A DNA stretch of 64,000 nt from assembly GCA_017418645.1 (NCBI GenBank), contig JAFOND010000214.1, forward strand, positions 2,401 through 66,400. Direction: 5' to 3'. The DNA is from Lachnospiraceae bacterium (lineage in GTDB: Bacteria; Bacillota; Clostridia; Lachnospirales; Lachnospiraceae). The notes under the pieces are model-generated. The model saw only the letters and a list, made by a program, of their open reading frames with translations. It was not told where the DNA came from and did no database searches. Shown here piece after piece: positions 52,056 through 62,950 of the stretch. A program made the position numbers and the translations under genes. Within the stretch, counting starts at the first letter, position 1, and every line of letters begins with the position of its first letter.

Positions 52056-54605
52056 TTGGGCGAAGTAAAACCATTTAAGAGTTACGACGAATATATGGGC
52101 AATGTGTTTGACTGCGTCAACCGTTGCCTTTATCAATATCTGGAGGGGATGAAAGGCGTTTTTTCAAACGGCCAGGGCGGCTATAAAAACGTTCTTTATC
52201 CCGACCTTGAAGTCGCCAGCGACAGCACGAAAGAGCAGATGCAAAAACTTTCGTGGGTTCTTACCACTCCTGCGGAAGAAGTGGGAAAGAAAACTACCGA
52301 GGGCTCGGCAAAAAGCGAAGCATCTGACGACGATCCCTTTGCAGGTTTCGGGGGCTTGGGTGACGATAGCGACTCCGGAGAAAGCGGTGGCGGTGCCGCT
52401 TCGGACGATCCTTTTGCGGATGTTTTCGGACTCTTCGGTTCGGACGACGAATCGGGCGGAGAAGGCGGAGACGACCTTTCCGATATCTTCGGTTCCGATG
52501 ACGATCTTATGGATATCTTTTCTTCATTCGGATCTTTGGGTGACGAGGAAGACGAAGGCGAAGGCGGCGGGGACGATCCCTTCGGAGGACTCTCCGGCGG
52601 TGCTTCTTCGGGTCCCGCGGTTGACACAACTCCCATAGCGGATGTTGGAGGACGCATTCTTGAAATTCAGGAACGGGCGAAAGCAGCGGTAGAAGCCGGT
52701 GTAAACATGCCGTTCTATGTCCTTACGGAAAAACTGGGATTCGATCCCTTTACGATCTTCTGTTTTGCCTGCGGTATCCTTTCATCAACCCAGACGGATT
52801 ACTCCGCTGTTTTCCAGATCGTTAACGAGAGCGGCGGAATGAATACCCCGACAATAGAATCTGCGGGTAAACTCTATTACGGAAATAAGTTTTCGATAAC
52901 CGGCGCATACGGCGATATGTCCGTATGTCTTGAACAGATGCAGCCGATACTGGATCTTCGTATCATACCTTCCATGCCGTTCTCGACACCGGTTTCCCCG
53001 GACAAGAGAATCATCGACTACCTCTTCGGTAAGTACCCCATGAAGCTTGATGAAAATTATTCAAGATTCTTAAAGATGCTTACAAAAGAAGATGAACAGC
53101 TTGATGATATCCTTTGTAACGAGAACGTTCTTGAGGCAATGAAGATTGCATACGGCGACGGCTCAAGACTTTTCTCATACATGGGAGACGAAGGCTCCGG
53201 AAGAAAATTCTTTATTAAAAAATTCTGTGCGGAGAACGGTCTTCGCGCCATGTCCGTTAACTGTAAAAAACTTTTCGTATACGACTATTCATACGTTGAA
53301 AAAGCCATATGGGCGGTTACGAGAGAGTGTATCTTAACGGACGGCTGCTGCGTTCTTGAAGAACTTCAGTACCGTGACGAGGAAAAAGAAAAGTTCTTCG
53401 GATACATGGATCTTTTCTTTACAAAACTTACGGAAAAGGGAGTTACCGTTTTCTGTAATTCAAAAGAAACCATCAACTTTAAAGAGATAACAAAAGAACA
53501 GATCACGCTTCTGACACTTAACCCGCCGGATATCGACGGTCGTGTTGCGTGCTGGAATTATTATTCAAAAGATTATAAATGGGGAGAGGATGTTGACTTC
53601 TTCGAAATGTCAACGAAGTTCCTCTTTACACCCGGTAAGATCAAAGATGCCTGCCATTACGGTAAATCACTTTCCGTTATGGACAGAGCGGAACTTATCG
53701 ACAGAGCAACACTCTTTAAGAGCTGTAACGCACAGATGTCTTCCGAACTTTCCGCGAAGGCAACACGAGTTGAAGCGAAGTTCGGTTTCGAAGATATCGT
53801 TATGAACAAGGATCAGCGTGAACAGATCGGACATGCCATCGAGCAGATGAACAATAAGAAGACGGTCTACGAGGATTGGAACTACATGAAGAAGTATCCT
53901 TACGGCCGAGGTCTTACGGTTCTTCTCTACGGGGCTCCCGGTACCGGAAAGTCCATGATGGCGCAGGTTCTTGCGCACGAGCTTAATCTTGAGTTATACC
54001 GTGTTGATATTTCAAAGGTTGTAGATAAGTACGTCGGTGAAACGGAAAAATCACTCTCCATGATCTTCCGCGAGGCAAAGAAGTGTAACGTCGTATTGTT
54101 CTTCGACGAGTGCGATACCATCTTCGCAAAGCGTGCCGACGACGGCGGTTCAAACCAGGCATCCGCAAACAACAAGACAGCCCTCCTGCTTCAGGAAATG
54201 GAAGCTTACGATGGCGTCTGCGTTCTGGCAACAAACTACAAGCACAATATCGACCCGGCTTTCTTCCGTCGTATGAAATACATCGTTGAGTTCCAGTTCC
54301 CGAACGAAGATACACGTGAAATGCTCTGGACAACAACGGTTCCGAAAACAACGCCCCTCGGCGAAGACGTGGACTTCAGATTTATTGCAGAGAAGTTCGA
54401 GTTTGCCGGCGGTAATATTAAGAACTGTATCCTTAATGCGGCCTTCCTTGCAGCTGAAGACGAAACTGCCGAAGGCAAGGTCTGCATGAGACATTATCTT
54501 AAGGCAATCCAGTACGAGTTCGTTAAGGTCGGCCGAGTATTCACGCGTGCGGACTTCGAACCCTACGCCGACATGATCTTCGGAGAGGAGCCTGAGAAGT
54601 ACTGA
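52056..54605 (+). CDS. CIS AAA+ ATPase (Afp15-like) with acidic low-complexity insert
   Basis: Walker A GAPGTGKS, KYVGETEK, Walker B LFFDECD, ATN, DPAFFRR and GGNIKN. The first P-loop is degenerate (GDEGSGRK). Confidence 0.93.
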   Translation: MGEVKPFKSYDEYMGNVFDCVNRCLYQYLEGMKGVFSNGQGGYKNVLYPDLEVASDSTKEQMQKLSWVLTTPAEEVGKKTTEGSAKSEASDDDPFAGFGGLGDDSDSGESGGGAASDDPFADVFGLFGSDDESGGEGGDDLSDIFGSDDDLMDIFSSFGSLGDEEDEGEGGGDDPFGGLSGGASSGPAVDTTPIADVGGRILEIQERAKAAVEAGVNMPFYVLTEKLGFDPFTIFCFACGILSSTQTDYSAVFQIVNESGGMNTPTIESAGKLYYGNKFSITGAYGDMSVCLEQMQPILDLRIIPSMPFSTPVSPDKRIIDYLFGKYPMKLDENYSRFLKMLTKEDEQLDDILCNENVLEAMKIAYGDGSRLFSYMGDEGSGRKFFIKKFCAENGLRAMSVNCKKLFVYDYSYVEKAIWAVTRECILTDGCCVLEELQYRDEEKEKFFGYMDLFFTKLTEKGVTVFCNSKETINFKEITKEQITLLTLNPPDIDGRVACWNYYSKDYKWGEDVDFFEMSTKFLFTPGKIKDACHYGKSLSVMDRAELIDRATLFKSCNAQMSSELSAKATRVEAKFGFEDIVMNKDQREQIGHAIEQMNNKKTVYEDWNYMKKYPYGRGLTVLLYGAPGTGKSMMAQVLAHELNLELYRVDISKVVDKYVGETEKSLSMIFREAKKCNVVLFFDECDTIFAKRADDGGSNQASANNKTALLLQEMEAYDGVCVLATNYKHNIDPAFFRRMKYIVEFQFPNEDTREMLWTTTVPKTTPLGEDVDFRFIAEKFEFAGGNIKNCILNAAFLAAEDETAEGKVCMRHYLKAIQYEFVKVGRVFTRADFEPYADMIFGEEPEKY

Positions 54606-55462
54606 TGGATTTTACCGTAATAGATAAAGACAACTTTAAAATATTCTCCCCGATAATCTTTGACGCCTTCACGGACGACTCCAAAGAAGTTCTCCGTATC
54701 GGCGCGGTGGAAGACAACAATATTATCGGAGCCATGTCCATAAGTTATCAGACTGCTATGGACACCGCAATCTTAGATTCCCTTTATGTCCTTCCGGAAT
54801 ACAGGAAAAAGGGCAAGGGAAAGGAGATGCTTAATAAGGCGGAGGAACTTGTAAAGAAACATGTTAACTGCCTTGAGGCGGAGTATCCGGAGTCTTCGAA
54901 AGGACTTGAAGCTTTGTTTAAATCCGGTGAATATGCCCGCATAGACGGTGATCCGATCTATGTGTACGATATAGATGAACTTCTATCAAACAAAAAGTTT
55001 ACATCTCTTTTAAAACCGGAAATAAAATCCGTGGACACCTTTACATTCAAGGATCTGTCCGGAGCACAGAAAAAGAGGATGTTTGAACTCTTTCGTGAGG
55101 ATGGCGAAAGAAATACCGAAGCGGGGACGAGAGGACTTTCGGAAGATCTTTCCGTGGCGGTATACGATGACAACGAATACAGAATTCCCAAAGCCTGTCT
55201 TTTGGCAACAACCTTTGAGGACTCGATAACAATTGCACAGCTTGAGGGTTCGGGAATCGATAACCCTAAATACATAACAGCGGCAATCTTTGCATTTGCA
55301 AATGCGGTAAAGGAAAAGAAGAAGGAAACAGACTATAAAGAACTTGGAATGGTTGCGGCACACAGAGGCGTAAAGAAAGTATTCGAGCTATTGTTCGACG
55401 GGAAGATAGAACCGAAGGAAAGCGGATTAAGACACGCCATAAAGGTTCTGAATGTGGGGTAG
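54605..55462 (+). CDS. GNAT-family acetyltransferase (paralogue 1)
   Basis: SLYVLPEYRKKGKGKEML acetyl-CoA-binding motif. Confidence 0.85.
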   Translation: MDFTVIDKDNFKIFSPIIFDAFTDDSKEVLRIGAVEDNNIIGAMSISYQTAMDTAILDSLYVLPEYRKKGKGKEMLNKAEELVKKHVNCLEAEYPESSKGLEALFKSGEYARIDGDPIYVYDIDELLSNKKFTSLLKPEIKSVDTFTFKDLSGAQKKRMFELFREDGERNTEAGTRGLSEDLSVAVYDDNEYRIPKACLLATTFEDSITIAQLEGSGIDNPKYITAAIFAFANAVKEKKKETDYKELGMVAAHRGVKKVFELLFDGKIEPKESGLRHAIKVLNVG

Positions 55463-61838: not shown

Positions 61839-61861
61839 GCCGACGGATGAGGTGGCAAAAA

Positions 61862-62950
61862 GTGCGGATCTTTGCTTTGCAGGACGATTTTCCGGGAATA
61901 GAGGAAGTTGAAAAACTTGTACGCCGTCTTTCGAGTGTTGCGGAAAAGGACGGGTTCTCATCTCCCAAGGAAGCCATGGACTGGTATCTGGCCCAGGATA
62001 AAAAAGGCGCTATAATCGGTCTGGATTCACAGAAAAAAATTATTAGAGTAAAGACATTCGGAAACTTTGAAGTCTTTTTGAACGGAGAGACGGTTTCTTT
62101 TAAGCGCGCCAGAGCAAAGGAAGTATTGGCATACCTCGTTGATAAACAGGGTACCGGGGCATCCCGTGCGGAAATCTATGCCGCAGTATATGAAGACGAA
62201 GAATATGAAAGAAAGCAGCAGAAATCTTTTGATGTTGTAATAAGCAGTTTAAAATCCACTCTTTCGGATTATGGGATTTCTGATATAATAGAGGTTAATG
62301 ACGGGAGCATCCGCATCATTCCCGAGAAGATAAAATGTGACCTTTATGATCTCCTGGAAGGAGATGAAAGGGCACTTGCACACTACAGGGGCGAGTATAT
62401 GTCTGCTTATCCCTGGTCCATGATGACGGAAGCTTATATAGATCAAAAATTTGTTAAAAAGGGAGGAAAGTCAGTGAAAACGGACATATACACATTGGAT
62501 CTAGACGATCTTGAAGCGTTCGGAGAAGAGATTCCCGATAAGATAACGGCGAACGTTAATAAACCGGGATTCTTCACCATAGGAGCCGTCGGTGTAACGG
62601 ACGGAGGCGAAAAGCTTGTGGGAATGTCGCAGTTTTACATCGATATCACTTCCGAAGGAGAATGTTTCGCGAATCTGATGCATGTATTTGTGGTCGACGG
62701 ATACAGAAGGCAGGGAGTGGGAACAAAGCTTGTTGACAAGGTTAACAATATCCTTAAGAAGAGCGAGATAAAGATGTGCATTGCCCGGGTTCCCGAGGAG
62801 AAGAGCAAGGCAATAAAGATCCCGCTCAAGGATTTCGATAAATTCCTTAAGGAATCCGATTTCTTTATCACAAAGGAAGAGATTGTCGGAGAGACGGAGG
62901 AAAAAGACAAGTCAAAGACAAAGAAGTACATCCGGATGACACGTCGGTAA
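61862..62950 (+). CDS. Winged-helix (OmpR/SARP-like) regulator fused to a C-terminal GNAT domain
   Basis: VKTFGNFEVF...FKRARAKEVLAYLVD...YRGEYMSAYPW, then HVFVVDGYRRQGVGTKL. GTG start after GAGGTG (the ORF also opens at ATG 61847). Confidence 0.8.
   Translation: MRIFALQDDFPGIEEVEKLVRRLSSVAEKDGFSSPKEAMDWYLAQDKKGAIIGLDSQKKIIRVKTFGNFEVFLNGETVSFKRARAKEVLAYLVDKQGTGASRAEIYAAVYEDEEYERKQQKSFDVVISSLKSTLSDYGISDIIEVNDGSIRIIPEKIKCDLYDLLEGDERALAHYRGEYMSAYPWSMMTEAYIDQKFVKKGGKSVKTDIYTLDLDDLEAFGEEIPDKITANVNKPGFFTIGAVGVTDGGEKLVGMSQFYIDITSEGECFANLMHVFVVDGYRRQGVGTKLVDKVNNILKKSEIKMCIARVPEEKSKAIKIPLKDFDKFLKESDFFITKEEIVGETEEKDKSKTKKYIRMTRR

Follow-up and report, generated by a model that had tools for sequence, protein, structure and literature searches.

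What is a series of acetyltransferase genes doing at the payload end of an extracellular contractile injection system (eCIS)? The question is raised by a stretch of 64,000 nucleotides from a Lachnospiraceae bacterium (GenBank assembly GCA_017418645.1, contig JAFOND010000214.1), in which the gene for the eCIS ATPase is followed by a family of GNAT-fold genes that alternate with genes for large, cargo-like proteins. The whole stretch (positions 2401–66400 of the contig, here C144) is referred to as the window, and all of its features described below lie on the forward strand. An earlier reading made from the letters alone (the sequence-only reading) had pointed out the alternation and suggested that the GNATs act as cargo-specific chaperones, immunity proteins or acetylation tags for loading. 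We favour the view, at about an even chance of its being correct, that the tandem GNATs are cargo-dedicated partners of eCIS payloads, acting as modifying enzymes or loading adaptors.

The choice and loading of eCIS cargo are known only for systems of the Photorhabdus virulence cassette (PVC) type, in which N-terminal signals on the cargo are recognised by the ATPase Pvc15 (PMC9054023, PMC11495950). This knowledge underlies present attempts to re-programme such particles as protein-delivery tools.

The window belongs to a metagenome-assembled genome (MAG) of 2.25 Mb that is 84% complete, and the named relatives of its proteins come from Lachnospiraceae MAGs. A complete set of eCIS core genes lies at 32937–54605 (Pfam). 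It comprises genes for Pvc16_N, sheath, gp19-type tube, two CIS_tube, Phage_base_V spike, gp25, baseplate J, Tail_P2_I, STAS and AAA ATPase proteins, and the gene set that characterises eCISs like PVC and the antifeeding prophage (Afp), namely sheath, tube, spike, gp25, baseplate J, Pvc16_N and AAA ATPase, is found in one cluster. The Pvc15/Afp15-type AAA ATPase of 849 residues (52056–54605; Pfam AAA, 98.7 bits, residues 622–747) is 75% and 62% identical to the eCIS ATPases of two other genomes, G394 and G077.

A family of tandem-GNAT proteins

Every open reading frame (ORF) that the sequence-only reading had listed downstream of the ATPase is present at its coordinates, and the GNAT folds assigned among them are borne out by Pfam or by a hidden Markov model (HMM) or profile of the family. 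GNAT1 (54605–55462, 285 residues) and GNAT2 (56970–57827) match the Pfam profile Acetyltransf_1 (PF00583) at 42.1 and 51.3 bits, above its curated cut-off of 20.7 bits, as does a single GNAT domain of the same clade fused to a winged helix-turn-helix (wHTH) at 61847–62950 (26.3 bits, residues 238–312). GNAT3 (58193–58972) falls just below the cut-off, at 20.2 bits, and matches the family HMM with E 1.5e-91. A further module, mod4, has no Pfam match from its own ATG onwards (59220–60065), and aligns from end to end with the family profile (hhalign, 93.8%, E 1.7e-7).

The AlphaFold2 (AF2) model of GNAT1 (pLDDT 80) consists of two GNAT-like modules of beta-sheet and helix. A Foldseek search with this model returns solved tandem GNATs at the top, with TM-scores of about 0.6, led by 2wpw (E 4.5e-13) and with further matches to 5kf1, 7q3a (MAB_4324), 1ozp (MshD), and 7wx7 and 6wqb (VipF). 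Sequence identity to these solved proteins is only 10–15%.

The N-terminal domain of the family carries the RxxGxG/A loop that binds acyl-coenzyme A (acyl-CoA), while the C-terminal GNAT domain lacks it. In the GNAT superfamily this loop (R/Q-x-x-G-x-G/A) contacts the pyrophosphate and connects strand beta-4 to helix alpha-3. Across 99 family sequences, 99% retain R67 and 94% retain G70. The loop reads RKKGKG in GNAT1, RREGIG in GNAT3 and RRQGVG in the wHTH fusion, is also present in GNAT2, and is complete in about 14–15 of the 19 copies from the source genome that align across it, being degenerate in those on contigs C7, C80, C104 and C134. We call mod4 degenerate because its hhalign alignment shows no RxxGxG/A where the loop would be; it is also unaligned across the loop with hmmalign --trim, an option that can clip weak ends. 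A loop that is nearly invariant, and lost in some members, suggests a family that is mostly enzyme-like with some pseudo-enzymes.

The similar segments with which the modules had been seen to begin prove to be a true family signature, as T4, I6, N10 and F14 are conserved at 85–96% in the same 99 sequences. In the AF2 model, the GNAT1 fold starts at residue 2 and runs straight into strand beta-1. Lacking an N-terminal leader, the GNATs do not look like cargo themselves.

An exhaustive profile search at E <= 1e-30 yields 140 cluster representatives, mostly of 265–290 residues, with some of 610–680 residues that contain two matched stretches. The only name attached to these clusters is ‘GNAT family N-acetyltransferase [Lachnospiraceae bacterium]’. 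A word-based homologue search with GNAT1 gave two matches, and a search for related loci with GNAT2 found nothing. The source genome itself encodes 18–20 two-domain paralogues, spread over many contigs. We rejected the possibility that they are GNAT toxins of type II toxin–antitoxin systems (TacT/AtaT), which are single-domain proteins of ~170 residues with a small DNA-binding antitoxin, whereas the proteins described here have two domains, ~285 residues and neighbours of 350–2500 residues.

GNAT genes are paired and co-duplicated with their neighbours

Sixteen family members in the source genome have a downstream neighbour, many of the pairs lying at contig ends. For eight of them, the neighbour is a same-strand, K/E-rich protein of at least 250 residues, without transmembrane (TM) segments, located within 35 nucleotides, compared with a background of 11.6% (binomial P 1.8e-4). 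The genome-wide count of GNAT–ORF pairs that the sequence-only reading had called for thus agrees with its claim of one paralogous family alternating with effector-like ORFs; the pairing is not strictly one to one. The same alternation is seen on another Lachnospiraceae contig (L040) and in the genomes G394, G153, G200 and G077.

GNATs and partners have also duplicated together. In all three homologous pairs of partners (C194a/C194b, C160/C7 and C104/C80), the accompanying GNATs are reciprocal best hits (P about 2e-4), even where the orientation of the genes differs. A fourth, weaker case lies in the window, where GNAT1 and GNAT2 (47% identical and reciprocal best hits) occur with a cargo-like protein of 407 residues (55469–56692) and a Q-rich ORF of 105 residues (57847–58164). 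The latter starts at an ATG at 57847 that is preceded by a ribosome-binding site, GGATGAGG, and is related to the first ~107 residues of the 407-residue protein, that is, to its leader only. The two are colinear over residues 46–107 of the larger protein (29% identity over 63 residues, E 2e-4 in a single BLASTP comparison), as the sequence-only reading had supposed, and this makes the Q-rich ORF look like a leader-only remnant or a mini-partner. A predicted complex of GNAT1 and the 407-residue protein scored 0.00, with the fold of the partner itself uncertain, and so says nothing about binding either way.

A clostripain-family gene (Peptidase_C11) is located directly upstream of the C194 GNAT–cargo pairs (L008:11062–12708), and a second lies a few genes from a 558-residue family member (P0171) on an unrelated contig of 74 kb.

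The partners share a marker domain

Partners in the source genome range from 350 to more than 1000 residues. They have no Pfam match, no TM segment and no signal peptide, contain 18–28% K+E, and begin with an E/K/Q-rich N-terminus. Signal peptides and TM segments were scored on part of the partners; the giants and the marker-domain proteins found later were scored for hydrophobic windows over the whole protein only, and a few of them show one. In G394, G153, G200 and G077, partners reach about 2200–2650 residues, and kinase-like domains of the ABC1/APH type are found in giant partners, as would suit effectors. Adjacency to an eCIS and the lack of signal peptides and TM segments, two features by which eCIS cargo is recognised, are both observed in the partners. 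A Pfam scan detected DUF4157 (PF13699) in none of the partners scanned, and searches of PDB sequences with partners of 998, 769 and 759 residues found nothing.

The 407-residue protein is an orphan, with 24% K+E, no Pfam or NCBIfam match and no TM segment. A word-based search of the protein database found a single homologue, which is 98% identical, and a search of the ESM Atlas gave no usable match, the Atlas's own model having a pLDDT of 0.53. Its residues 217–324 align with residues 340–455 of a giant of 2491 residues. An iterative HMM built from this pair converged on 25 proteins, in agreement with the shared domain of ~90 residues that the sequence-only reading had described. Most of the 25 have one strong match of ~100 residues, located about 130–440 residues from the N-terminus and ending in SPYYA/V, while in a few the match lies deep within a giant or there is a second, weaker copy. 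Outside this marker domain, the partners are mostly unrelated to each other. Among the marker-domain proteins of the source genome, 10 of 17 adjoin a GNAT-family gene (P 3e-13).

The set includes three proteins of the window. One is the 407-residue protein, with the domain at 56114–56446 behind its E/K/Q-rich leader. The second is the N-terminal part of a further cargo-like protein (63046–63999, domain at 63718–63984), which is open at the end of both window and contig, is preceded by a promoter-like site (consensus match only), and is related to partners of 760, 842 and 2183 residues; the 407-residue protein and the 760-residue partner family are linked through the iterative domain HMM only. 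The third, at the opposite end of the contig, opens the window at 3–740 with the C-terminal part of a 1037-residue protein (C144:27–3140) that matches the HMM over residues 31–130 (independent E 4e-15).

The model of the marker domain is a helical bundle (pLDDT 86). A fold search with it retrieved generic helical bundles, with E > 1 in the PDB and unrelated families in the Atlas, and the domain belongs to no Pfam family. This ~100-residue, predicted helical ‘SPYYA’ domain behind an E/K/Q-rich leader is uncatalogued and new here. Inspection of the leaders by eye for a universal short motif gave only a loose basic patch about 90–130 residues in. The leader resembles no defined signal, a statement that does not extend to the PVC signals, with which no sequence comparison was made.

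The GNAT clade was found only in genomes with an eCIS

Among 401 Lachnospiraceae genus representatives, this eCIS sheath (E <= 1e-30) occurs in 40 and the GNAT clade (E <= 1e-20) in seven. All seven are within the 40, on the close-sheath side (hypergeometric P 6e-7, with G000 left out). Looser clade members are present in four of five further close-sheath genomes, some of them on the eCIS contig, while two genomes of the same genus, G002 and G003, have neither sheath nor clade. In a class-wide sample, the only new clade-positive genome, G720, is from another family, and it too has a sheath (68% identity). The sequence-only reading had named, among what would speak against it, a lack of association between the clade and CIS genomes; the clade was found only in eCIS genomes, in G720 as in the seven of the 401. 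The marker domain is present in six other genomes, five of which have a sheath. In the window and in G394, G187 and G200, the eCIS is immediately followed by cargo genes, whether accompanied by GNATs or not.

Other genes of the string

Between the 407-residue protein and GNAT2 lies an ORF for a small K/E-rich protein of 85 residues (56694–56951). Its homologue in G394 (78 residues, 46% identical; L043:7681–7917) is encoded in the eCIS locus directly upstream of the ATPase, and the protein may belong to the eCIS as a small accessory, and not to a cargo pair.

The region 58193–60065 had been read as a single multi-GNAT ORF. The GNAT modules are there, but the single open frame is not. Homologues of ~610–680 residues in which two GNAT units are fused match one frame up to 58972 and another from 59025. 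GNAT3, whose open frame extends to 59188, aligns with residues 1–260 of one such homologue (P0016, 627 residues), and mod4 (59025–60065, tblastn) with residues 281–626. The change of frame falls in an acidic DEDEDE tract, and it indicates that the double gene of the window is frameshifted, split or mis-assembled. The counterparts of GNAT3 and mod4 in G077 are separate genes.

The pair is followed by two genes for membrane proteins with six TM segments each and no family match. The first has 226 residues (60065–60745) and a 30%-identical homologue in G077; the second has 353 residues (60777–61838), a soluble C-terminal part and a 32%-identical G077 homologue. Both keep their order after the GNAT3/mod4 pair in that genome (L045:11830–13565). 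The wHTH–GNAT protein at 61847–62950 comes next. Its wHTH part is of OmpR/SARP type (Trans_reg_C, 22.1 bits, below the cut-off of 26.2), and its residues 217–365 match positions 6–136 of the family HMM (E 6e-9). It is probably a regulator. A terminator-like hairpin of 11 pairs with a T run (62953–62981) closes the string from ATPase to regulator, within which a consensus scan, the sole basis of the terminator call, found no strong terminator-like site.

Upstream of the ATPase, the eCIS operon contains a gene for a STAS-domain protein (51696–51995; Pfam STAS, 65.6 bits), with homologues of 64% and 51% identity in the eCIS loci of G394 and G077. One family member (P0101) is a fusion of 635 residues that joins STAS, an APH-kinase-like domain and a tandem GNAT. 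Together, the operon's STAS gene and this domain arrangement hint at a functional link between STAS, kinase and GNAT.

The ~200 N-terminal residues of the ATPase (window 52056–52700) hold an acidic stretch of low complexity, rich in Gly, Asp and Phe, with repeated DDPF-like motifs, as the sequence-only reading had also noted. The G394 eCIS has a second ATPase-like gene (739 residues, 30% identical; L043:3008–5227) that overlaps the first by four nucleotides and occupies the position of GNAT1 in the window. Just upstream of the eCIS core, at 25443–32832, are two very large ORFs of 1443 and 1052 residues, and in G394 and G077 this place is taken by relatives; the genome-wide marker-domain HMM search, the only marker check made on them, does not list either.

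A dedicated partner for eCIS cargo

How might these components work together? In the reading we favour, the region after the ATPase would be the payload end of the eCIS operon. The cargo proteins would be large, signal-less and K/E-rich, and would belong to a rapidly evolving family, each with a disordered E/K/Q-rich leader, the ~100-residue ‘SPYYA’ domain and a variable body, which in the giants includes an ABC1/APH kinase-like domain. The tandem GNAT would recognise the N-terminal part of its cognate cargo and, in most copies, use acyl-CoA to modify it ahead of its insertion into the tube by the Pvc15-like AAA ATPase. Copies without the loop (mod4, C80/C104 and C7) would be non-catalytic subunits or adaptors.

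Several features point in this direction. That the CoA loop is conserved speaks for acyl transfer by most copies, and makes an enzyme, or a binder derived from one, more likely than an inert chaperone. Retention of pseudo-enzyme copies, together with co-divergence, suggests that recognition of the partner is the common denominator. The location of the GNAT upstream of its partner is closer to the arrangement of type VI secretion system (T6SS) adaptors, or of toxin activators and RTX toxins, than to the order of toxin and then immunity gene.

Other observations weigh against it. The sequence-only reading had proposed that GNAT1 is translationally coupled to the ATPase. In the window, the ATPase stop (54603–54605) and the GNAT1 start (54605–54607) do overlap as TGATG when read in the sequence; the overlap is not conserved in the related loci of G394 and G077, where other genes follow the ATPase. 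A 34-kb island on the minus strand of contig C64 (3–33813) has eight consecutive giant K/E-rich genes (826–2268 residues), five of them with the ‘SPYYA’ domain, and one short GNAT of 132 residues, from which it follows that pairing is frequent and not obligatory. The GNAT is convergent with its partner or downstream of it on contigs C7, C80 and C233. A strong paralogue on C137 (351-residue ORF, L010:201–1256) is divergent from a flagellin gene, and the contig breaks off on the paralogue's downstream side. The proteins from which the marker-domain HMM was iteratively built are biased in composition, and the P-values for co-occurrence are overstated, since related genomes are not independent. 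Finally, G229, which is 99% complete, encodes a marker domain (G229:C14:21624–21938) in an open frame of 2196 residues, and has no sheath match at E <= 1e-30 and no clade GNAT, only a generic GNAT frame of 160 residues. A search for Pvc16_N found none in G229 and none in the control genomes either, so this absence carries no weight.

A more specific version of the favoured reading is that loading is licensed by acyl-CoA. For each cargo, the cognate tandem GNAT would acylate the leader or the marker domain, and either the mark or the GNAT–cargo complex would be what the AAA ATPase accepts. We regard this as unlikely. The corollary is tentative to the same degree: loading into a contractile injection system would follow a post-translational code, with pseudo-enzyme copies as adaptors.

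Of the alternatives, immunity fares best, though it is unlikely. The GNAT would protect the producing cell by acetylating the toxin, its target or its product, or by sequestering the toxin until export. Cognate pairing and co-divergence are typical of toxin–immunity pairs, and the retained cofactor loop would permit enzymatic detoxification. In polymorphic toxin systems, the immunity gene usually follows the toxin gene, and the GNAT lies upstream of its partner in most pairs, opposite to that order. A single conserved fold would also need to neutralise bodies as dissimilar as orphan helical and kinase-like ones, and the eight cargo-like genes of the C64 island have a single short GNAT between them. 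Linked antitoxins do occur with some eCIS toxins, as a passage in PMC8213781 mentions.

Quite improbable is the idea that the GNATs are themselves injected effectors, as Legionella VipF is, with the large neighbours being carriers or unrelated cargo. VipF is among the fold matches (7wx7, E 8e-10, and 6wqb), resembles them in size (~285 residues) and in its two-GNAT layout, and the GNAT genes do sit in the payload region of the eCIS. However, the GNATs have no N-terminal leader, and an N-terminal signal is required by known PVC cargo (PMC9054023, PMC11495950). Free-standing effectors would not be expected to be strictly adjacent to partners and to duplicate with them, and degenerate copies without the loop are still retained.

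No more probable is a role in regulation, whereby the GNAT modules would sense acyl-CoA or acetylate regulators to control the production or firing of the eCIS. The fusion of the same GNAT domain to a wHTH, the P0101 fusion together with the STAS gene of the eCIS operon, and the synteny of GNAT3/mod4 with two membrane proteins are all compatible with it. A set of 18–20 diverged paralogues, each located beside a different large protein and duplicated with it, is nevertheless unlike a family of regulators, and most copies have no DNA-binding or signalling domain.

Least probable of all is that the modules serve some other process and co-occur with the eCIS through shared ancestry or mobile elements: many pairs are on other contigs far from the eCIS, the compared genomes are related, and the marker domain of G229 was found with neither a sheath match nor a clade GNAT, but all eight clade-positive genomes have a sheath, one of them from another family, G002 and G003 lack both, in at least four genomes the modules come straight after the eCIS, and the absence of signal peptides and TM segments from the scored cargo-type partners gives no sign of another export route.

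Comparison with known systems

The cargo-dedicated partnership favoured here has partial counterparts in several secretion systems. One is PVC/Afp itself, with which the locus shares the core gene set, signal-less cargo-like genes after the AAA ATPase, and hydrophilic cargo N-termini. It differs in that, for PVC, PMC9054023 and PMC11495950 have Pvc15 alone reading the cargo signal and describe no cargo-specific accessory, whereas here most cargo has a tandem-GNAT gene. In addition, the cargo shares a ~100-residue helical domain outside Pfam, and the modules occur at many places in the genome.

DUF4157 has been proposed as a chaperone, in cis or in trans, for eCIS toxins (Geller 2021, PMC8213781; Danov 2024, PMC11297309). 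The eCIS-associated toxins (EATs) that carry it resemble the present partners in having a conserved N-terminal marker on variable eCIS-linked proteins, and the idea of a nearby helper in trans is likewise shared (PMC11297309). Unlike them, the partners have no DUF4157; their marker is another helical domain, and the partner in trans would be the GNAT.

T6SSs have effector adaptors or chaperones of the DUF4123/Tec, DUF1795/Eag and DUF2169 types, which are cited in PMC9054023. The likeness lies in a helper of a contractile injection system that is specific to one effector, is encoded upstream of it and co-evolves with it. Those helpers have unrelated folds and are not enzymes, whereas most GNATs here keep the cofactor loop, and DUF4123, DUF1795 and DUF2169 have no Pfam match in the GNATs or partners.

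The HlyC/CyaC acyltransferases that activate RTX toxins are encoded directly upstream of the toxin, are said to be related to the GNAT fold, and use acyl-acyl carrier protein (acyl-ACP). As here, a small gene of acyltransferase fold directly precedes one large secreted toxin gene, with one copy for each paralogue. The present proteins differ in having two GNAT domains and a classical CoA loop, rather than using acyl-ACP, and in their link to an eCIS rather than a type I secretion system. The likeness is in gene arrangement only, and the window GNATs have no Pfam match to the HlyC family at E <= 0.1.

Solved tandem GNATs (2wpw from the clavulanate pathway, 5kf1, which is the glucosamine N-acetyltransferase of C. 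acetobutylicum, 7q3a, 1ozp and 7wx7) share the two GNAT domains and a chain of ~285–330 residues. They act on small molecules, except for VipF, whose substrate is a host protein, and the family described here has its CoA loop in the N-terminal domain.

GNATs and acetyltransferases are absent from the main text of the eCIS surveys consulted, including PMC8213781 and PMC11297309. A full-text literature search that combined eCIS or contractile injection with GNAT or acetyltransferase found nothing relevant, with most subscription journals outside its coverage. A preprint on rumen-ciliate symbionts (10.1101/2025.07.29.667580) was set aside, as it mentions an eCIS in other families and, of acetyltransferases, only phosphate acetyltransferase.

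Implications for eCIS biology

If the favoured reading is true, a dedicated and probably catalytic double acetyltransferase would add a cargo-handling step to the eCISs of a lineage of gut and rumen Clostridia. The tandem-GNAT clade and the ‘SPYYA’ domain would then provide two sequence markers for payload repertoires, even where the genes are located far from the machine, and some of these payloads would be giant, kinase-bearing proteins.

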